Assembly: GCA_003971905.1 (NCBI GenBank)
Contig: RSEE01000006.1
Span: forward strand, 744,001-808,000
Source of the DNA: Moniliella sp. 'wahieum'
Lineage: Eukaryota
Length of the DNA stretch: 64,000 bases
Direction of reading: 5' to 3'
The translations under genes were made by a program, and so were the position numbers. Shown here one piece after another: positions 3,999 to 44,597 of this stretch. Below the pieces are notes generated by a model. It had not been told where the DNA came from. It saw only the letters and a list, made by a program, of their open reading frames with translations, and made no database searches. Each line of letters begins with the position of its first letter. Within the stretch, counting starts at the first letter, position 1.

Positions 3999-4163
3999 TT
4001 GGGCAGAGTGCAAACACCCAAGTCAAGTGTTGGCCAAGTGATGGCAGCGCCGCAGCGGCTGCTTGCCACCAAACCAACCAACCCCATCTGGCGCCACGCG
4101 CGGGGCCTGTGCGGTGGCACGGGGCCAGTGTGACCGACGCAGGACCAGGGGCGGGCAGCGGCG

Positions 4164-4420
4164 GAGCGCTGAGCGCTGACGCGTGACGCGTGACGCGTGA
4201 CGCCCCCACGTGACGCTGGCAGGCAGGGTAGGCTACGCGTGTGGCCTCGTGTTGCTTCGGCCCCGGTCTGACGTCAGCGTCACCTCCACCCCATCCGCGG
4301 AGCTGCTGAGTCAGCCACAGGTGCTCACGTGATGCACGTGATGGCCGGGGGTGATCGATGATCGGTGGTCGATGGTGGATGGTGGATGGTGGATGGCCGA
4401 TGGTCGATGGTCGATGGCGC
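4164..4420. repeat. 7-bp-phased TNA+palindrome arrays in the cofilin/ALDH divergent intergenic region
   Basis: (GAGCGCT)2(GACGCGT)3 at 4164-4198, and a degenerate TGATCGA/TGGTCGA/TGGTGGA run of about 10 units at 4352-4420. Confidence 0.9.
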
Positions 4421-10435: not shown

Positions 10436-10631
10436 TGACCGGTGACTGTCACCAATCAGGTCACCGGTGGTCATCGGTCACCCTGGTATGCGCGACTGAG
10501 CTCCTGCAGAACTTCAGCGCTCAGCCAGGCTTCGGCACGTTCTTGAACGTTCAGTTGAACGTTGCACTTGAACGTTGAATTTAATGAAGCTTGAAGCTTG
10601 AAGCTTGAAGAATGATCGATGATCGGTGATC
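10436..10631. repeat. Cluster of 7-bp-phased TNA+palindrome units
   Basis: TGACCGGTGA at 10436, TCAGCGCTCA at 10514, TGAACGT three times (10544-10575), then in register (TGAAGCT)3 TGAAGAA TGATCGA TGATCGG TGATC at 10585-10631. Confidence 0.9.
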
Positions 10632-13055: not shown

Positions 13056-15895
13056 CCTCTCCAACGGTCTCCCACCTCTTCCGCATGTCATCTGCATTGG
13101 GTTTTCGTCGTCGCCCTGGCTGCTTGTACCGCTTTCTTGCATCCTGGTCTCAATACCACTCCTACTGGACCTTAATTCATCGTCGAGCCAGGGCGGGGGC
13201 ACCACCCCCAACGCGCCGCCCTTGTGCCAACTGCTCCCTCGTGTATCATTGGCCATACTTCCGTTACACCCTGCGTGAACTCAGTGTTTTAACCCATGCG
13301 GGATCAGTACGATCAGTAGTTGCTACTAAGACACGGAGCCGGTAGCAGAACTGAGCAGACAATATGCTGAGGAGGTACCACCGAACATCCGCATCGCAGC
13401 GGGGACTGGGAACAAAGTTCTCATCATATGCGCCATGCATCTTTCTTTTCAGACCTCAGGCGAGGTCAATCTTCCATCCTTTGAGCGTCAAGCCTCTGAC
13501 AATTTCAGGTGCCACTGGGCACGGTGCTTTGCGAACGGGCGCATCAAAAAGAAGGAGCGATCTTCATCAGCTTCATCGATCATCATTAATTATTAACCAC
13601 AGCGCACGTTTTAGCTGATGCGCAACTTGATTCTATTCGGGCCGCACCACCCAAGAAAGAGTCCCCCTCTTAGCATCGACAGGCACCAAGTCAATCATAT
13701 GCTGAGATCAAGGCTTCTGTTTGCTGATCAAAGAGACAGCCAACCTGCACCTACTCTCAGCGATCTCAGCAACAATAGTTTCTTACCAAGCTGAGGGGCT
13801 GGGACTGAGAAAAAACCTTAGCGCACTCGCGCTCACTGCTGCTGCACAGAATGATGGCTTGCCGATTATCGCCTTACTGTCTTACCGGTAAGTAAGGGAC
13901 CTTACCAACGTAACTTGCCCTACCACTTGAAGGGAAAAACGCTTTTATACCGCTGGATCAACCCCTGTGCTCTCTCATTTTGTCCAGTGCCGCCTTCGTC
14001 CATCCAGTGCTCAGACCTTTTCTAGTGCTCGCTCTTGATGTCAACCACCCCTAGTGACCGGTACGCGTTTCCCCCTCAACTCATGCACGATTCCCTTGGT
14101 CGTTGAGACTGACGCTTCATGAAGCAGTATGCGCCTGTACCGCAATCAGATCTGCTGGCGCTGCGACAAACCAACCTGCCCAGATCTTTCGGGGACCAAG
14201 TGTGCCGAGTGCGGACATGCTTACGGAGCACGACCTTTCTTCGTTTCGCCTTGACATGTTCAGTAGGTCCGGCATTAGCGGGAATGCAAGGAGAGAACGG
14301 AGGTGCCCTCAAGACCTACTCACCCGAAACAAACACATCGGCCATCGAGGAACCCTTTCACCCCGAACGGACGTTCCACTATGATATCAAGACAGCCGCT
14401 TCGTCCGCCGTCGCTCAAACGGGAACACCCGAGCCAGAAACTGTGTGCAGGTGTGCAACGCGCGCTACAGAAACGATCGGAGCAGAGAGGTTTACACAAT
14501 GGTGCCTCGTTCTGCTCTCCTATCTTGTTCCATATGTTGACACGATCCTCCACTTGATCCTTGCCCGCCCCTGTCCATCTCTAGAGCGAGATGAGTATGT
14601 TTAATAATCCAACACACCGTGTCTGACCGGATCGATCGAGTCCAAACCTAGGCCTCATCCTCCGTCGTCAATCGTCCGGGGCAGATGGCATGCGTTGCTG
14701 GGTGGGCCAAAGCATTTTTTTCACGCTTGCCACAAGCTTGTGAGCTGACGGGGGATGACCGATGGTCGATGGAGACGTTAGTAAGAAAACAGGGGTGAAT
14801 TATAGTGTCCATCTCGTCGATGAACTGGCAGGAGCGAAGATGCCAGCGGGGCGGAGAGCTCTATATATGCACACGATATGTGCTTCGCAGTGGAGATGAA
14901 ATCTCCGTGCCGTGAAAGGACGAAGATCGGGAGCAATCTTCTGGAACTGGGCGGTGGGGGTGGAGCGTAACGTAGAGGAAGATTGGTATACTGGCGCCAA
15001 GTGAAAACATCGTGTGAAACGAGAGGGTTGTTTGGATTGAGGAAAAGACGGAGGGAAGGGGTGGAAAAAGAGCCTCGGGCACGATACTGCAGCCTCTTTA
15101 TTAATTGTGGTTACCCTTGTCGCTGTGTCTAGAGATAGCGGGTACCCCTGAGAGGGTAGGGAGACGTGGAGAGGGTCGCACACACGCCGCAATGGCCCAA
15201 TAACAGTAGTAGTAACTAATAGTAACCAGTATCCGCTCCGGTATACGGACCACGCCGGCAGAGACATATAGAGAGGTATTATACCAGTCAGGGTTCAGGC
15301 TGAGAGAGGGGAGGAGGGGCACCCTCGGGCAGTGCATGCCTCCCGATCGGAGAGAGCATCAGGCCCAGCGGGCAGGCGCTGAGCGCTGAGGCCGCGCTGA
15401 GGGCTGAGGTTGCCGATGCGCTGAGGTCTTCTAACATCTGAGATTCTCAGATCTGAGATCCAAGATTGGACGAATTGGTACCAATCAGAGCGACGTGAAA
15501 AGGTCACGTGATGGGCACGGCGCCAGTGTAACGTGGGGCTGCTAGTGTCCATCATGAGATTAGATAGCGGAAGAAGATCCGAGCAATGCTGGTAGGCCTC
15601 AAGCTTCAAGCCGCCACTATCTCAAGGCAGTCCATGTAACATGCTACCAGTTACTAGGTTTGCGGCCTTAGGCCTTATCGATCATCGACTCAACCAGAAT
15701 TCGTCCCTAATGACGGCAAGTAACCCGCTACCCACACCCTCCTACCATCTTTAGCGCTCCCGTCAGCTTGTGCGTGGACCACCAGCAGCTGAGTGCAGTG
15801 CCTTTGCATATATACCCCCACCTCAGCCCTCGCCTCCAGCTTTCAACCACCACCCACCTCGTCACCGTGTATCCCTTGGGCCAAAACCCACCAAG

Positions 15896-17748: not shown

Positions 17749-18712
17749 TTCAACCTATTCAACGTTGAACGTTCGTTCAACGTTCTATGTTGACGCGTCA
17801 CGTCCAAGAACCCACTCCCAACTGAGGTGTATATATCCTCCTTTTGCAGCTCTTCCTAGTTACTATTAGTGACTAGTGACAGTTACTAGTCTCGGTCGAC
17901 TCCGAAAGGTCTACACTTGCACTGGTGTCGAAGAGCAGGGTGGTGGTTATGGTGGGCGATGGTAGCCATGGCGCATGGACATGCGTGGGAACTGAAAACG
18001 CGACCAGCTGGGTACAGGCTGCTGGTACAGATGAAATGCATCAGGCAACTTGCAATCATAATGGAGGCTGCATAGAGTGAGCTAGTGCCTGCGCTTCGTG
18101 CGCAGCGTGGCTGATGATCGGGGCCAGAGAGAGTAGGGGTGCACGGATGCGGCAGCAGCAGCACACAGCAAGCAGGCTCAGAATGTGGGGTGGCCAATTG
18201 CTGTTGCCTGAGAGGGCAAAAGGCGCAGCTACAACAGCGCTAATACGCGCATACGCGCTAAATCGGGCCAACATGCCGCACCGGCTGCACGACGCCGGCA
18301 CATACGTGGCGGGTGACATGCGTGACATGCTCCCCCGTGCCGGAGAGGTGGCACCGGCCCGCACACCGTTCCTGTGCCGACATGCGGCAGCGCGGAGGCA
18401 CAGGCACCCAGCCATGCCGACGATCACCTCGATCACCATCGATCAACGATCACCGATCACCGGACGATCATCGCTGGTCGCGAGTCGCGTGGCGCCAGTC
18501 ACCCGTCGCTAGTCTTGGGGGGGCGTGCGGATTGGACCAGTGTTAGGTGTAAGACCTTAGACTTCGGTAAAGAGCCCAGGCCGACCCTTAGGCCTTAGGC
18601 CTTATTAGACTTTACCCGCTCCTTGGGCCTTACCCGCTCCCTGGGCCTTAGAGCTTGGGCTCTACCTGGCCTTGGCCTTACCGCGAGAGCTACGCGTGAC
18701 GTCACGCGTCAC
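17749..18712. repeat. Intergenic clusters of TNA+palindrome heptamers
   Basis: TCAACGTTGAACGTT and TGACGCGTCA (17759-17800), TAGTGACTAGTGAC (about 17867-17880), a degenerate TCATCGA/TCAACGA/TCACCGA run (18420-18473), CCTTAGGCCTTAGGCCTTA (about 18586-18604), ACGCGTGACGTCACGCGTCA (about 18692-18711). Confidence 0.85.
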
Positions 18713-25540: not shown

Positions 25541-25640
25541 CGGTGACCCGTCCGGTGACGTGACGGTGACCAGAGTTACCAGTGACTAGTGACTAGAGTG
25601 ACTAGTGACTAAGATATTATGTGTGATGATTAATGACTAC
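25541..25640. repeat. TGAC-/TGACTAG heptamer cluster in the FDH / amine oxidase bidirectional promoter
   Basis: AGTGACTAGTGACTAGAGTGACTAGTGACTA at 25581-25611 and TGATTAATGA near 25627. Confidence 0.85.
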
Positions 25641-26168
25641 TGTCGTAGTGGCTGGTGGCTTAGCTAGTGGTCGCAGTGATCAATGATATTGATAAGCGAT
25701 GGTGCGGGGCGCTTCTCTGCTGTAGCAAGGCTACAAGCCAGACATCTGCTTCTTCGGACACTGTCATCAAGCTTCATACGCCGTATCTGCACCTGTCCGC
25801 TCTTTTTGACACAACAGTCTCTCCGCATTTTTTCTTTCGGTGGCTATCAACTATCAGCCCTCGAGCATCGGTCACTCAGCCTGATGCATGGTGAAGCCGG
25901 TGAAGCGAAGTGCGGCACACTTGCGCCTGTCCGTCCGCACGGCTCAGTGTCGAGTATCCCCCCTCTTCAGTGTCTCAACCGAGGACCTGGTCCGTGTTGG
26001 ATTTGTGGACAGGAAACTGCCGAAGCAAGGGAGGCCGCGGTCCCACTCCTCGCCTCTCTGCGTGCGCCACCTATTTAACTGTCCTGCAGTGTCTCCTTGC
26101 TTCTTTCCTACAGTTCTCCCATCGTCCATTCACTGACCCCAATCCACTCGACTTCCAGACTACGCCCC

Positions 26169-28809: not shown

Positions 28810-29120
28810 AGCGTTGAACGTTGAACGTGTGTTGTTCAACCCTCAACGTCTCAATGTTGAGCCTCAACGCGCACCCATGGCGCCAGGCTCGGTGCATGCT
28901 GACTGGCTCAGCGCCCAGCTCTGGGCGCTCAGCCTCAGCGCCCTCAGTGCCTCAACGGAGATGGATGGTCCTACATCGGTCACCTTCAAGCTTCAAGCTT
29001 CATCTGTTTTCTTGCGAATCTTGCCTCATCGATCATCAGGCCTCAGGCCTTGATGAGCTTGATGCCTAGATAGGCCGTGTATAGTTTGACGGGCGAGGAG
29101 ATGGGTCACCGGTCACCAGG
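28810..29120. repeat. Cluster of TNA+palindrome heptamers upstream of malic enzyme
   Basis: TGAACGTTGAACGT (about 28815), (TCAAGCT)2TCA at 28986-29002, TCATCGATCA at 29026, (TCAGGCC)2 at 29036-29049, TCACCGGTCA (about 29106). Confidence 0.88.
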
Positions 29121-29983
29121 CCACCGGACAAGCCCGGTCGCTCCTTGTCCCGTCTTGAGCGCCCTGAGAGTGAGTGATCGATTCCCTGCCGTTTTTGTGT
29201 CCGAAGAGAGAGCGCCTGGAAGTGTTGCGCAAAACTCGTCCAGCAGCCCACCCACCCCTAGTTTGATTACCCTCCTGACCCTAGCGCAATACCCCTGTGT
29301 ACCCCGGGACCGGGACCGGGGGACCCCTCTTGACGCATCGCACCCGCCCCCAACAGAGTGCCCTCCTCCCGCTCATAGCTCATCACTGATCGATCATCAA
29401 ACATCCTTAATCATAGCAAACGTTGCCAAGTTGCATACGGCGCGTATATCCTGGTGAGCCACCCGGTCGTTTCCGGTACCTTCGGGACCACCCGGGAACG
29501 TACCCCTGCTGGAGCTGCCCACGGTGGTCTGCTACCTGTTCTCTATAGAAGACCAGCAGCAGGTATGCCCCCTCTAATGCGCTCGCCGCCGGCGTTAGTA
29601 TGTCTGAGACATCGGATGGCCGCATGGAATTAGCGTTAGCGCGCACAAAGTTTGTACCTCACGCACCACACCGCTGATTCTCGGCAGCTGGCCGGCCACA
29701 AAGCAGCTCAGGGCGCTCAGGGCCAGTCTCGGAAGCGCGAACACCTCGCGATATTTTTTACACCAAACTTAACAGGTTTAACAGGGGCCGCAGGTGGCAA
29801 TGCACATGACGTGACGCTGTGCCTGTGGTCTCTTTTACCTGCTATCCCTGGATCCTCGTGTAATAAATAGCACCTGGCTCTTGATTGAGCATTTTGAGTC
29901 AGCTCCATATCTGCCCAAAACAACCCAGCCTCTTTCTCATTCCTCTCTCATCCTCGTCCATATCTGTGCTTGCCTTCGTCGAG

Positions 29984-32234: not shown

Positions 32235-33057
32235 GAGTGGTAACGAGTGAATTTACGGTCCACACTCTTAATGGCACAACCTCTTTATCTGTTCTCTACC
32301 CTCACGTTGGAGGACCACTTCGGTATACCACACGCTTGTTTGAGTAATGGGGGGCTATACCCCGTTTTGTGTATGTCTGCACCAGCTTTTGGCTTCGTGC
32401 CTCTCGCTTGGACATAATTATGACTGTGATTATCAACATCATTGCTATTAAGTGTCGATAATTGATTGTACAGGGACAAAGAGACGCTGGGGTTCCTAGT
32501 GGGTACCCAGGACATTCCCGCGGTAGATGGTCCGACGTGTCGCGTGTTGCTATATAATTGCCCGATTGATTTTGTTCCCTATGTCCGACGTGTCATGACG
32601 TGGAAGGCAAAGGGGGTTATCAGAAATATTTCAACATCACGCATGATGCATGACATGTGGCAGGCCACGGTGACCGGTGACGGTGACCTACCTGCTTCGT
32701 CCGCCACTTGCAAGCATCGCCAGCGCCGTGTTGCCTTTTGTAGCTCCACACCTCCACCTCCGGCCCGTCTTCCACCGCTCGTTTCGCAATGCCACCAGTC
32801 ACCAATGCCACCATCTCAGAAGACAATTTGGCTCAACTTCAAAAGCTACCAATTGGCCATATGCGTCGACCGTCTTGCCCGCAACCAGCTCAAGTCCAGC
32901 AACTGAGACGATAGCCACTTCCACATCCACTATCACACCCTCCTTCTACACGGCGCATTTCGGCTACGGCGTCTTCTGCCGTTTCAGCGCTCCGAGCCAC
33001 TCCCATATCAAGTCAGCCAGCCACACCGGCCACTGCTTTGCCGCTGGTACTACCGGC

Positions 33058-36709: not shown

Positions 36710-38830
36710 TTACACTCAGTACTCAGTTACTCACTGTACGCTTGCAGTATACTTAGTCTGAGATCTGTGAGTCTCACAGCTCAGCCTGCGACATGCTCAC
36801 ATCATCAGTGCTGGCTGTGAGGCTGCGCTCAATGAGTCTGAGTAGTAGTACGTTTAGTGACTAGCGACTATAGTGAATCTGGAAGCTTGAAGGACGCAGG
36901 TTGGTGCCGCAGCAGAGAGTCACTAGTCAAGCTAGTCACTAGTCACTAGTCAAGCTTCAAGCTTCAAGCGGCATTGCTTCAGAGGTCTGGGGGCGTAGGC
37001 CATTCGCGTAAAAGATGTGATGGATGGGACAGCATGTTCTCAGCGGGCCACATTTTTCGGTCACCAAGGTCATACACGTGGACAAATGCCACGCCGTCAC
37101 AGATCCTCACCGACATTCGCGTGCGCGTGACCGCACCTGAACCTAGTAAAGCTCCTAAGGCCGGCCTAAGGCCTAAAGGGCCTAGGCCCTGAGAGCCTCT
37201 GCGCGTGAGCACCTGAGCCTTTGAAGCATGACCGGTAAACGGTAAACGGTAAACGGTAAACGGTAACCGGTGACCAGTAACCCGTAACGGATTGTGACTT
37301 GTTCGTCCCAGACTATTGTGCCGTCTTGCCACGATCTGCATCCATCGATCCATCGCCGTGCCCGTTCGGGAAATATGTAGAGCGCTCAGGCTGAGCGCCC
37401 CGTGTGGCGAGCCTCTTCAACGTTGAGATCTGAGAGCCGCTGGGTATGATGAATGATGTGCGCATATACTTTTTTCCCCTATATAGATCTCTCTCTGGCA
37501 GATACTATCAGTAGGTCTACACGTGTTATGCGCTGCTACCTCTGCTCTGCTTAATAATCCTCTTCCCAGTGATAGGTCACACAACCACACCAGATGAGAG
37601 GCGCTGTGTGTGAGTTGCGGGGCTCCGGCACCGGTAGCTTTTCAGCACATATAAGGCACACACACATGTACCTCCGCTCCCATCACATGTCGCACAGCCA
37701 TTATCTGCATCATCCCTGTGTGTGGTTTGTTGAAGATCGGTACGCCCGTTATGGTTCCTGGCATTAGTACTTAGTTAGTACTGAGTCTTGTCAGCGATCT
37801 TAATCATTAATCATTCTTCATTTTAACCAATCTCAGCAAGCTTCCGGCCGAGGTGAAAAAACGTGGAAGGTTGCCGTCGAACGGTGGCCGTACGGCTGCC
37901 GGTGACCCGCGGTGATCTGAGTTTGGACCTCCGGGGGAGAGATGCTCGATGGTGGAAGGCGATTTACAGCCAGGGTGTTACATGTTACAGAGGCGTTGCA
38001 TGCTTTTATTACGCGCTAACGCCGCGTAACGCGCAGCGCGTAACGGCTACATGTTACACGTTACATGTTGCGCTTCGCGTTCAAACGTTAATAAAAGCTT
38101 AAGCACTTACGCGCTCATACTGTAAGTACTCAGTACGAAGTATGAAGCTTGAAGCTTGAAGCTTGAAGCTTGAAGCTTGAAGCTTGAAGCTTGAAGCTTG
38201 AAGCACATATCCACGACACACAACATCGCCCGCCACCGCGCCACCCTTAGGCCTTAGGCCTTATAACATCACCGATGCAAGCAGTTCTTCTGTCCGCGCA
38301 ATGTCTCAGGAACACCGCACTCCCCACATATACGGGCACGAGACACCGGATGGGCGTCTTTTGAACGTTGACTAGTGACGCGTGACGCGTGACGCGTGAC
38401 GGTGCATGTGACCTCCGGCTCCCAGTCGGTAGTCCAGGTTCGTCTCGCTCATCGTGTCACGCTCTGTCCATGTGCCCTACAGTATCTCCTATGTGCCTCA
38501 CTGACCCTGTGCCCAGTCCGGCCTCCTATATAGATGCCTCTGCAAGCTGCACCCAGACCCACACGGGCTCCAATCCATCACCTTCTCCTCATCGATCATA
38601 TCCTTCTGCGCGTCCGGCTCTCCCTATAGGCCAATAGCTTCTGTGCTTTGTGTTGTTGTGTGGGGACGCTATTGCACAGAAAAACATTGTGCGAGCGTTG
38701 CGCGTTACGCACAGTCTGCATTGCATGTCACACTTACTGTGCTTCCGCCTTCCGCCTTCCACAAAAGGTTCAAGCTTCATCGACTTCAGCTTCATATATC
38801 ATCGCTCAGCCTCAGCGCTCAGGGCGCCCA
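36710..38830. repeat. Densest field of 7-bp-phased TNA+palindrome arrays in the window
   Basis: TCACTAG/TCAAGCT run at 36920-36969; TGAAGCA TGACCGG (TAAACGG)4 TAACCGG TGACCAG TAACCCG at 37222-37290; TTACATGTTA near 37978; (TGAAGCT)8.9 at 38143-38204; (TTAGGCC)2 near 38247; TGAACGT TGACTAG (TGACGCG)3 at 38362-38400; TCAAGCT TCATCGA..TCATATA TCATCGC..TCAGCGC TCA at 38770-38821. Confidence 0.92.
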
Positions 38831-38988: not shown

Positions 38989-39848
38989 TGTCACGGGGGG
39001 GTCCCGAGTGGGACCCCCCCTGTAGTTTAGGGGTATAAACCCTTGGACAGGTCAATCGGTGGCTCGTACGTTAGGTCCTGCTCCAGATCCTGGTTGAACC
39101 GAGCGGGTGTAGAGGCTAGGGAGAGACCCTCTAGTTTGGGTGGCTGCCTGCGTGCAAAGGCCGCAGTCCAGACCCTCCGAGGTAGGAGCCGTGTACGTAG
39201 GTCGTTAGACCAGCTGAAGGGGTCCAGGAGCTCCGGAGCTACTCTGTTCCTCGCCGCGTTACCACACTCGGTACGCTGTAGCCGGCGGGAACAGACAGAG
39301 TCCTAAAGAAGAGCAAGCGCTACTGATGTGAGTAACCGCGGCTTGCAGTGCACTCGACGTAAGTCGTAAATTCGTAAGCGTAAGGGTGGTAGAAGGTGGA
39401 AGGGCGAGAGAGGAACTGGTAGTCGGGGAGACCAACGGTAATAGACAGGATGGTCGACCAGGACCACAGCTAGCAAGCCTTAGACATGGCTGCTTATATA
39501 CCCACAGCAGAAGGAACCAGGCCTCGAGTGCCTCATGACAAGTATGGACAGAATGCGGGGCACTTCCCAGAAAGGTAAAGACTAATGTACAGCCCTTGCT
39601 TCCCAAGGCGCTGACGCTGCGTAGTCGGGCGCAGCAGTAAGGGTTCTGCCAAGACTGGACGCAATAGTCACAAAGCATCGTACCGATAAGCCCATGCGAC
39701 CATGGCGGGCCGCGGATGATATCCGCAGCAAGGATAAGGTGTCGACTGGCTCTCTCTCGCTAGTCTATCCGGACTGACGCGTGTTGTACTGAGATGTCTA
39801 CGACATGCGGGGCTCAGCGTCCGGAGATAACCGGAGCGCCCCGTAACA
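38989..39848 (-). mobile_element. Solo LTR (860 bp) with a 5-bp target-site duplication
   Basis: Ends TGTCACGGGG ... CCCCGTAACA (9/10 inverted match), flanked by TGCAT at 38984-38988 and 39849-39853. A minus-strand TATATAAG at 39493-39500 suggests the orientation. Confidence 0.85.
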
Positions 39849-42092: not shown

Positions 42093-43264
42093 CTGGGCGT
42101 GTTCACGCTAATGGCAACGGCCTGGATTCGGTGAACGCGCCGCGTTTATCACAGAGTACTCCTTCTAAATCGCACTGAAGTGCGCGTCTACATGCATACT
42201 GCTTCCTGCATCATGGTGGGGCGAGGCCCCATGATGGAGTTTACGTGCCAGAAGGCGAGGGGAGGGGGCATCTGGCAGCGTGGACACATGTGACACTCGG
42301 CCATGGTTGATGTGAACAATCACGTCAGCCTGCGTACCCACGGCTTTTTCATAAAGTCGCCCATATTTCCTTCCCTCATGGTGTTGAGGAGACTGGAAAG
42401 CAGTTTGGCCAAGCACAGTCGTATACGAGAGGGTAGGGTCCTCGGTCTGACCGGGTGGACAGGCGATGTGCACAGTGTATTAGCGCAACCGAGCCTGCGT
42501 CCCGAAGAAGCCAACGTGCCACACCTTTCCCCGTCTGCCTTTTGTCGGCGATGGATTCATGTGGTGCGTAGCTGAATGGGTAAAGTAAGAGATCCCCCCT
42601 GACGCGTGACCGCCCAAGGTCGAGCTGCAGTGGTGGAATGCGTCCGCACCAGACGCCGAGTCCTGCAGCCATTACGCCGCTCTGGGCAGGGCAAAAGAGG
42701 GCGCTTTACTTGGCCCTATAGCCAGCGCGAACAGGGTCAACGACATGAACTGTCAAGGGTTTGTTCCGCTCAAATGCTCGCCTTCTCAGGTTTTGCGCGC
42801 CTGCTCGCGCCCCCCCAACCGCTCCACTTGGGTGCACTTCTTCCGTACGCCGCTCTTCTCTGCCTCTTTCGCATGATTGAACACATTCTTTGAGAGGCTG
42901 GTCAACCTTCTCATGCCCCATTCAGCCTCTCTGCAAGCTAGTTGTCCATGATGCTGGAACGGTGGACTGGAGCGGTGGACTGGACAGTGAAACGGTCGAG
43001 GATGAGCGCGATGAGCGCCCGATGAGCGCTGAGCCTCAGCGCGCTGGGCCTGGTCCTCTTGTCTCTGCTCATCGTATTGAACCAGCGCGCAATGAACATT
43101 ACCTTGCACAGTTTGCGCATATCGCACCGCTCGACATGCTTAGTCTGCTTCTGGCTGTTGGAGTGTTAGACCACTTGGTGTGATGGCTTGATCGGCCACG
43201 TCGCTGGCAAGCGGAACTGGCTATAGAGTTCCGCGACTCGCCCGCTCTGGATTGGTTACCGTCG

Positions 43265-43712: not shown

Positions 43713-44011
43713 TGTCACCGAATGACTAAGCTCGCTCCAATTTCCAATTCCTCCTGTGTCTCTCGCTCTTCCCTTCCCTTTTGCTTCTGTTCTCTGCCTG
43801 ATGCCTTCTGTTTCCTCCCACGAACGATCTTGCCTTTCCCCCCGCCTCTGACAGGACCTTGGTCTCCCTCGTTTAGCCCCGACTGTTACATTATCGTTCG
43901 TGGGAGGAAACAGAAGGCATCAGGCAGAGAACAGAAGCAAAAGGGAAGGGAAGAGCGAGAGACACAGGATGCGGAATTGGAAATTGGAGCGAGCTTAGTC
44001 ATTCGGTGACA
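43713..44011. mobile_element. 299-bp foldback / MITE-like element with long terminal inverted repeats
   Basis: Arms 43713-43828 (116 bp) and 43893-44011 (119 bp) are exact reverse complements except for one 3-nt indel. 64-bp spacer, termini TGTCACCG..CGGTGACA, CCCCC on both flanks. Confidence 0.9.
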
Positions 44012-44597
44012 CCCCCATTCTTTCTTGAGCGACTAGTGAAAAAGTCATGTGACATGTGATGTGAGACTGGTCAGTTCGGGACTTCCACAGACGTGTGATT
44101 TGCGGCGGCGCCTGACGCTGGCCAGACGCCAGGCAATCCCAAGCCCATCGCGATGGCGGGCAGAGACGGGAGCAGCACTGCCCCTATGCCAGCATGACAA
44201 CACCGCAGGGTGCAACCCTAGTGCAGAACGGCAACAAATTTGTAAGCGCAGGCGGGCAGTGTGTGTGAACCCTTCTCTCGCCTGGGGCCTCGGCCTTACC
44301 CGGACAGCCACTAGTCACTAGCCTCCCTGCGCTGTTAGTTCCTTAAGCGCACATCATCACACGCAACCGACAGCTGCCCCTGCTGCCTCCCCCCCGTGCT
44401 TGCCTCCTGCTCGCCGTTCGTTGCTTCGTTCGTTGCGGCGTTCGTTGCGGCGTTCGCTGCTGCTGCTCTGCTCCTTCTGCTGCCGCCACCGCCCCCCTCC
44501 CCCCTGCTCCTTCTGCTGCCGCCACCGCCACCCCCCCCTTGCGGTTTCTGCCGCCGCCGCCGCCGCCACTCCCGCCACCAATTCCGCCACTGCCACA

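Follow-up and report, generated by a model that had tools for sequence, protein, structure and literature searches.

Palindromic cores copied from flanking bases at T-N-A-centred sites in Moniliella sp. 'wahieum', and their possible origin as hairpin-type repair scars

A 64,000-nucleotide stretch of the genome of the fungus Moniliella sp. 'wahieum' (GenBank assembly GCA_003971905.1, contig RSEE01000006.1, positions 744,001 to 808,000 of the forward strand; hereafter the window) contains a large class of heptameric units, defined here as T-N-A followed by a palindromic tetramer (the core), many of which are stacked in tandem arrays. We found that the cores are copied from the dinucleotides that flank the arrays, and that related junctions carry direct repeats of a 7-bp target centred on T-N-A. 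On balance, we consider it probable, with considerable reserve, that each unit is the scar of one break-and-rejoin event at a T-N-A-centred 7-bp staggered site, resembling the insertion and subsequent excision of a transposon. This single 64-kb window is the basis of all counts on arrays, flanks and duplications, and all coordinates refer to its + strand.

Heptamers consisting of T-N-A and a palindromic 4-mer occurred 280 times, compared with 172 +/- 12 in 100 dinucleotide shuffles of the window. In-register neighbour pairs numbered 37, against 0.5 (maximum 3) in the shuffles. For pairs with different cores, the numbers were 11 and 0.45 (maximum 3), so that the comparison of mixed in-register arrays with chance, proposed in a first-pass annotation of this DNA, came out in favour of that annotation within the window. 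Palindromic tetramers bounded by T-N-A on both sides were found 88 times, while the shuffles gave 7.4 (maximum 15). The excess is confined to 4-bp spacing: 88 of 215 spacers of four bases were palindromic, whereas the fractions at two bases (29 of 101, about 25 expected) and six bases (4 of 161) were near the naive expectation. The remaining 127 of the 215 words with 4-bp spacing, which are not palindromic, are at about the background level of the other spacings. No such signal was detected in 30 fungal metagenome loci (277,463 bp), which were chosen via relatives of a GH79 open reading frame (ORF) in the window and included no close relative. There, 62 of 720 spacers between T-N-A triplets four bases apart were palindromic (8.6%, vs 41% in the window), indicating that the pattern is not a general fungal feature.

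The 88 bounded words fall into 64 loci, ten of which hold two or more cores, and are concentrated in ORF-poor stretches adjoining genes. They use 14 of the 16 possible palindromic tetramers, roughly following base composition. The middle base of T-N-A was identical on both sides in 69 of the 88 words (GG 38, CC 23, TT 7, AA 1); unequal pairs include GC (4) and CG (3), and about 13 of the excess words are unequal. Clustering of strand orientation was ruled out, as the orientations formed 20 runs among 41 loci (about 21 expected). G loci numbered 21 and C loci 19. Tandem Repeats Finder listed many 7-bp arrays in the window. Exact tandem duplications of 7 bp, with a total length of 14 bp or more, numbered 41: 25 were T-N-A plus palindrome, 5 had T-N-A with a non-palindromic core and 11 were without T-N-A. 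None of these 11 is palindromic, which shows that generic slippage here does not make palindromes. The units decay. Perfect words exceeded a first-order Markov expectation by about 80 (88 vs 7.7) and one-off variants by about 48 over eight constrained positions (214 vs about 166 expected), which corresponds to a decay of about 0.07 per site and leaves no trace of selective maintenance of palindromy.

The origin of the cores became apparent from their surroundings. Writing a site as pq-TNA-xy, we compared the 128 array ends of the 64 loci with 10,000 permutations of the flanks among loci. The last core equalled xy followed by its reverse complement, i.e., the right flank repeated the 5' half of the core, in 34 of 64 loci, and the first core equalled the reverse complement of pq followed by pq, i.e., the left flank repeated its 3' half, in 27 of 64. 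Together, 61 of 128 ends matched, compared with a permutation mean of 10.0 and a maximum of 23; at least one flank matched in 49 of 64 loci (permutation mean 9.65, maximum 21) and both matched in 12. The length of the match had its mode at two bases (0 bases, 44 ends; 1, 23; 2, 32; 3, 14; 4, 12; 5, 2; 6, 1). Plain duplication of palindromic 7-mers followed by decay was rejected as the source of these arrays, since it predicts that both flanks remain intact in about 72-81% of loci, while this was observed in 12 of 64 (P<=2e-18 at d=0.08).

Arrays with more than one type of core follow the same rule on each side. Most mixed arrays are two-part, each flank having supplied the cores on its own side: in the five mixed arrays bounded by T-N-A, the right flank predicted the right core in 5/5 and the left flank the left core in 3/5. 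At 4168-4202, the sequence reads GC, TGA-GCGC, TGA-CGCG three times, TGA, CG, and both core types derive from the flanks of one ancestral GC-TGA-CG. The array at 36934-36968 reads AG, TCA-CTAG twice, TCA-AGCT twice, TCA, AG, and that at 15666-15686 reads CC, TTA-GGCC, TTA-TCGA, TCA, TC. Besides these five arrays, the locus at 32642-32662 (CA, TGA-TGCA, TGA-CATG, TGg, CA), in which the final T-N-A has degraded to TGG, also obeys the two-sided flank rule.

The first-pass annotation had argued that duplication with random point mutation would not readily turn one palindrome into another, and had proposed that units are added independently at a reused TGA. The former holds: in 25 chains of T-N-A at period 7, adjacent palindromic cores were identical in 18 cases and different in 6, and five of the six different pairs differ at all four positions. 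The same chains contained 7 neighbours that were single-step non-palindromic variants. As for the mode of addition, units do appear to have accrued in 7-bp steps at a T-N-A that was used repeatedly, but their independence is not supported, because the flank dinucleotide predicts the core (61 of 128 ends vs a mean of 10.0).

A second class of junctions points to the length of the target. At ten loci, a T-N-A-centred 7-mer is repeated after a spacer of 2 nt, and in all ten the spacer reverse-complements the two bases beside it; in the other 15 centre classes this was true of 7 of 58 spacers, which is chance level (Fisher p=6.7e-8). The spacer copies the preceding bases in CGTGATG-CA-CGTGATG (4328-4343; CA from TG), in the GATCAGT repeat at 13302-13317 (AC from GT) and in the GATGAGC repeat at 43001-43016 (GC from GC). 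It copies the following bases in the repeats of CTTCATC (13562-13577; AG from CT), TCTCAGC (13755-13770; GA from TC), GATCACC (18422-18437; TC from GA), GGTGAAG (25890-25905; CC from GG), CTTGATG (29049-29064; AG from CT) and GCTCAGG (29706-29721; GC from GC). The tenth, AGTGACT twice with spacer AG (25588-25603), lies within a TGA-CTAG array region (25581-25611). Three of these +9-bp junctions (13302-13317, 13562-13577 and 13755-13770) stand within 500 bp of each other, and 9-bp additions would preserve a reading frame.

Two further junctions keep both 4-nt palindromes, each in the order predicted, compared with 0.00 in 40 Markov resamples. One belongs to a compound locus at 15378-15409 with the target GC-TGA-GG, which combines a left-type unit (GCGC), a double junction and a plain 7-bp duplication. 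At 15387, both palindromes are retained in the predicted order (GC-TGA-GGCC-GCGC-TGA-GG), and at 15396 the same target is simply duplicated (GCTGAGG GCTGAGG). The other, at 37154-37178, reads CC-TAA-GGCC-GGCC-TAA-GGCC-TAA; here, the palindromic target CCTAAGG carries a double junction (37156) and one ordinary unit. Three loci with a 1-nt spacer also fit, two of which could be simple 8-bp duplications. The 7-mer repeats and the junction at 15387 contradict a 5-bp duplication (TNAxy) plus two P nucleotides, i.e., junction bases that reverse-complement the adjacent flank.

Across the window, 57 junctions with 4-bp flank-copied palindromes have a T-N-A centre, compared with at most 5 for any other centre class. 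We reconstructed 56 targets, taken from 47 loci with equal middle bases and from 9 of the 10 loci with a 2-nt spacer (25590 was omitted, as it lies inside an array). Their centre is G or C in 100 of 112 symmetrised counts, vs a 2.8:1 background, and G/C-centred loci outnumber others 40 to 5 (p=0.012). Targets that are themselves palindromic are over-represented (12 of 64 vs 1/16 expected, p=5e-4). No strong consensus beyond this T-S-A centre (S, G or C) was found in the 56 targets. The junctions thus combine the two features by which hairpin footprints are recognised at the sequence level: a direct duplication of the target, here the T-N-A-centred 7-mers, and inserted bases that reverse-complement the adjacent flank, found in 10/10 spacers and 49/64 loci with 4-bp spacing.

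A break-and-rejoin pathway that would generate these junctions can be outlined as follows. The 7 bp pqTNAxy would be duplicated as a target-site duplication, both flanking ends would be closed as hairpins, and a host nuclease would open each hairpin two bases from its tip. Each opened end would then carry a self-complementary 3' overhang of 4 nt, xy.y'x' at the left end and q'p'.pq at the right end, and the duplex would end exactly at T-N-A. End joining that retained one overhang would give a net gain of 7 bp, namely T-N-A, a flank-copied 4-bp palindrome and T-N-A again. P bases retained beside an intact second copy would yield +9 (7-mer, two P nucleotides, 7-mer), and retention of both overhangs +11. 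Repeated visits to any T-N-A of a scar would stack units, those templated by the left flank lying to the left and those templated by the right flank to the right, and the following visit would convert a base substitution in a flank into a perfect palindrome of new sequence. The arrays could afterwards be lengthened by ordinary slippage. The templating by flanks, the T-N-A centre, the 7-bp repeats, the junction classes and the neutral-like decay are observed features of the window; from these we infer the hairpins, their opening at +2 and a transposon as agent, the likeliest being repeated insertion and excision of a hairpin-forming element.

The array to which the first-pass annotation had drawn attention, at 38362-38401, reads tt, TGA-ACGT, TGA-CTAG, TGA-CGCG three times, TGA, CG. 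The string it had reported for 38362-38400 (ending in TGAC) matches letter for letter; the period extends one base more (TGACG) and is followed by gtgc. Its neighbouring cores do differ at two to four positions, as claimed (ACGT vs CTAG, 4/4; CTAG vs CGCG, 2/4), and six TGAs at period 7 occurred 7 times at 3 loci in the window vs 0.00 in the 100 shuffles. The right flank CG predicts the core CGCG, whereas the left flank TT does not predict ACGT, for which GT is expected. An ancestral GT-TGA-CT could have given ACGT as a left-type and CTAG as a right-type core. A T>G substitution in the flank (CT>CG), subsequently palindromised, would then have taken CTAG to CGCG with two positions changed together, and one later G>T substitution would have turned the left flank GT into TT. 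CTAG-TGA-CGCG is also the expected yield of an AG-TGA-CG context, and a deletion between TGAs may instead have fused two neighbouring arrays; the order of events is thus a reconstruction. A structure-driven origin of this mixed array was ruled out, as its single-strand fold is not unusual (z -0.44). The annotation had regarded the locus as the most diagnostic one for the mechanism. We came to a different assessment, because the array obeys the flank rule at its right end only and requires more steps than the two-part arrays. More diagnostic are the arrays at 4168-4202, 36934-36968, 15666-15686 and 32642-32662, the compound locus at 15378-15409 and the ten loci with 7-mers around a 2-nt spacer.

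Slippage also copies existing units and certainly acts here, because rule-breaking mutant units have been amplified. At 37229-37288, the non-palindromic TAA-ACGG is repeated four times (from 37233) beside TAA-CCGG, and in the degraded array at 4352-4417, TGA-TCGA passes into TGG-TCGA and TGG-TGGA (three times), i.e., units without T-N-A were multiplied. The identical tandem units and one-step variants typical of slippage microsatellites are seen in such amplified mutants and in pure arrays, e.g., at 38143-38204, where TGA-AGCT is repeated eight times, followed by TGAAGC, and the right flank AG predicts the core. They are not seen in neighbours with different cores (5/6 differ at 4/4 positions) nor in the birth of units at non-repeated sites. 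Heptanucleotide simple-sequence repeats are familiar from prokaryotes, e.g., the cyanobacterial STRR. These long prokaryotic repeats are likewise non-coding 7-bp tandems that change by slippage, but they lack the palindrome rule, the T-N-A centre and flank templating, and the window holds fungal genes. Neighbouring sites can also fall into register by the route shown at 10583-10631 (TGA-AGCT three times, TGA-AGAA, TGA-TCGA, TGA-TCgg), where two T-N-A sites 4 bp apart were each expanded from their own right flank. Adjoining this AGCT array, at 10537-10579, TTGAACGTT is present three times with a 13-bp period (TGAACGTTCA / TGAACGTTGC / TGAACGTTGA), which differs from the heptamers and is not explained by our model. 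The stretch 37980-38140 is dense in decayed TAA/TTA units (TTA-CATG, TTA-CACG, TAA-CGCG, TAA-GTAC/TCA-GTAC), suggesting that whole intergenic tracts may be made of old scars.

Several observations weigh against the origin of the units in insertion and excision. Neither flank matches the core in 15 of 64 loci, and 26 of 128 ends match over 3-4 bases, more than a strict 2-nt rule plus chance would give. At more than one scar per kb, the units are very dense for footprints of a transposon, and a spacing that is almost always 4 nt means that hairpins would have been opened and trimmed with unusual uniformity. The array at 38362-38401 requires either two flank substitutions or a fusion of neighbouring arrays to account for its three cores. 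In Hermes and Ac footprints, the terminal base adjacent to the element is complemented, a form that fits one locus here (38812) vs 57 even-type T-N-A pairs. Furthermore, the agent itself was not found in the window. Of the 183 stop-to-stop ORFs with 120 amino acids (aa) or more, 144 were compared with Pfam and revealed no DNA transposase, and a structural search of the window yielded neither a matching hairpin-forming transposon nor any terminal-inverted-repeat element flanked by a T-N-A-centred 7-bp duplication. Combining 7-bp duplications with inverted repeats recovered only the arrays themselves, two weak 9-10-bp matches at chance level and one LTR (long terminal repeat)-like element, for which a 5-bp duplication is the better reading, and inverted repeats flanked by T-N-A gave 6 matches (8-9-bp repeats), not above other trinucleotides. 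Finally, the evidence comes from one 64-kb window with one allele per site.

Classical hAT transposons generate 8-bp duplications with an nTnnnnAn preference. Elements of this Ac/Hermes type, with an odd hairpin, were rejected as the source, since the duplication here is 7 bp (nnTNAnn) and even palindromes prevail 57 to 1; they fit poorly because the junctions are even palindromes. In other respects, the junctions have well-described counterparts, as far as the available portions of the cited sources extend. Ac/Ds footprints consist of palindromic copies of flanking DNA (PMC4561436), and in hAT, Transib, MULE and RAG reactions the flanks form hairpins that are opened by host enzymes (PMC5499845). 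Artemis opens hairpins mainly at +2, two bases 3' of the tip, and thereby leaves dominant 4-nt palindromic 3' overhangs (PMC2175297), which the 4-nt palindrome of the window junctions matches. In common with the hairpin footprints and P nucleotides of Ac/Ds, Transib, the MULE Muta1 and RAG/V(D)J recombination, the window junctions carry bases that reverse-complement the adjacent flank and keep the target duplication. Unlike these systems, they show a 7-bp T-N-A-centred duplication, tandem iteration at the same site and a near-uniform junction length, in a window without a visible element.

Two basidiomycete families of cut-and-paste DNA transposons, hAT7 from the rusts Puccinia and Melampsora and Kyakuja from Laccaria, duplicate 7 bp of target sequence (PMC12730594); the superfamily that includes hAT7 is a hairpin-forming one. 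They occur in other subphyla, and the available part of that source describes neither a target preference nor footprints for them (PMC12730594); neither family was found among the 144 of 183 ORFs scanned in the window. PIF/Harbinger elements such as the Tourist-type mPing share the T-N-A target with its free middle base, and their excision is reported in the same partial source as for Ac/Ds to be precise (PMC4561436). They duplicate 3 bp and excise via complementary T-N-A overhangs, whereas in the window the 7 bp are present on both flanks and the junctions contain P nucleotides. A PIF/Harbinger footprint was therefore rejected: xy follows the left T-N-A and pq precedes the right one, so that the repeat is 7 bp, not 3. 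Canonical Tc1/mariner footprints have the same layout of a duplication, a short symmetric insertion and a duplication. Mariner-type insertions derive from element-end bases and are, according to the passages available, constant within a family (PMC4561436), whereas those in the window vary (14/16 tetramers) and follow the local flanks, and this candidate was also dismissed.

Alternative explanations share parts of this evidence. An enzyme that is resident but not mobile (e.g., a domesticated transposase or other dimeric nuclease), or aborted transposition, could impose the same 7-bp stagger at T-N-A with hairpin-type repair and no resident element; we regard this as unlikely. It would leave the same junctions, explain why searches of the window found no element, accommodate more than one scar per kb and need only a simple T-S-A centre (G/C in 100/112) without a strong extended consensus; domesticated hairpin-making hAT-type nucleases exist in yeasts. 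However, we know of no chemistry that gives two hairpin ends with the same 7 bp without an intervening element, and a 64-kb sample can easily miss an element of low copy number. Replication errors, i.e., slippage and strand-switching of the quasi-palindrome correction type without a double-strand break or hairpin nuclease, are quite unlikely to account for the units by themselves. Pure arrays can indeed fold: the single strand at 38140-38207 (z -6.35) forms a stem built of 5-6-bp blocks, with N.N mismatches and a triloop of T-N-A, and 4160-4206 reaches z -2.97. The amplified non-palindromic units (TAA-ACGG four times, TGG-TGGA three times) also fit this explanation. It does not explain how a first palindrome arose at a non-palindromic pq-TNA-xy, where there is no stem to switch on, nor the T-N-A centre (57 junctions vs at most 5) and the 10/10 reverse-complement spacers; the mixed array at 38362-38401 folds ordinarily (z -0.44), and the 11 of 41 exact 7-bp duplications without T-N-A contain no palindrome.

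Literal independence of the units, with arbitrary palindromic 4-mers such as element-end dinucleotides inserted at a reused TGA in PIF/Harbinger- or Tc1-like footprints, appears very improbable. A target-site duplication on each side of a 4-bp palindrome resembles mariner-type footprints as presented in the available text (PMC4561436), PIF/Harbinger elements target T-N-A, and in 15 of 64 loci the core fits neither flank. Against this, the cores draw on 14 of the 16 palindromic tetramers at about the frequencies given by base composition, the cores are predicted by the flanks, the junction duplications are 7 bp rather than 3 bp, and mPing/PIF excision is reported, in the part of the source available, as precise (PMC4561436). 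There is also little to commend selection for protein-binding sites in promoters, e.g., for dimeric factors that favour TGA-containing palindromes, which we hold to be highly improbable. The loci do cluster in ORF-poor stretches beside genes, and some units look similar to bZIP or E-box-like half sites. Such selection would not be expected to give 14 different cores, templating by the flanks, a random orientation of strands (21 G vs 19 C) or a decay at constrained positions similar to that at the free middle base. That the units are an artefact of assembly or sequencing is barely conceivable, given the graded decay among loci; to our knowledge, no artefact copies a local flank dinucleotide into a reverse-complement pair only at T-N-A.

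The remainder of the window comprises genes and a few other repeats. It is eukaryotic in character, with short ORFs and with fungal genes, among them those for an aldehyde dehydrogenase, a class-III alcohol dehydrogenase, a copper amine oxidase, a malic enzyme and an SNF2/chromo protein. The closest named relatives of the GH79 ORF are from Tilletiaria, Violaceomyces and Exobasidium (38-42% identity), which is the sole basis on which the sequence placed the window near Ustilaginomycotina. The sole mobile-element match among the 144 of 183 ORFs scanned was a copia-type RVT_2 domain (E 1e-37), located in an 839-aa open frame (2-2518, + strand) that runs off the window start and represents a retrotransposon fragment or copy. 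An 860-bp element at 38989-39848 starts with TGTCACGGGG and ends with CCCCGTAACA (TG...CA ends), has TGCAT on both sides and a G7/C7 hairpin at its 5' end, and probably represents a solo LTR bounded by a 5-bp duplication. At 43713-44011 lies a near-perfect palindrome of 299 bp. Its arms, 39 and 77 nt long, match at 100%, with an offset of 3 nt and a centre of 64 nt; it starts with TGTCACC, has CCCCC on both sides and may be a foldback or MITE (miniature inverted-repeat transposable element)-like insertion. A 36-bp repeat of about 2.9 copies at 44468-44573, CTGC/CGCC-rich and inside long overlapping ORFs, is probably a coding low-complexity repeat.

The hairpin-type footprint is already known as a kind of event. 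The apparently new features are a 7-bp target centred on T-N-A, a junction of near-uniform form, the piling up of scars in arrays and a density of more than one scar per kb. In the literature, of which our search covered a part, we found no description of T-N-A plus palindrome heptamers or of stacked footprints, and 14-mer strings of the units appeared only in unrelated papers. If the units are indeed scars of breakage and rejoining, they would represent hairpin-type footprints with P nucleotides at a scale and regularity undescribed in the literature reached. Stacked in tandem arrays, the scars would seed microsatellites and produce coordinated double changes that mimic compensation. The rules would be checkable: an empty site would hold a single pq-TNA-xy, each scar would add 7, 9 or 11 bp, and the flanks would predict the cores. 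The scars would also point to the presence, in this smut-related fungus, of an element or enzyme whose 7-bp stagger is centred on T-N-A, and would offer thousands of natural junctions for the study of fungal hairpin opening and end joining. More tentatively, a mobile or domesticated hairpin-forming transposase, possibly still active, might leave a heritable +7-bp mark at each visit to a T-N-A, and such marks, more than one per kb in this lineage, might be a main source both of new intergenic DNA and of the 7-bp microsatellites in it. Were this the case, single flank substitutions would become perfect new palindromes, and the genome would constitute a natural record, genome-wide in extent, of where hairpin ends are opened in fungi (+2) and how they are joined.

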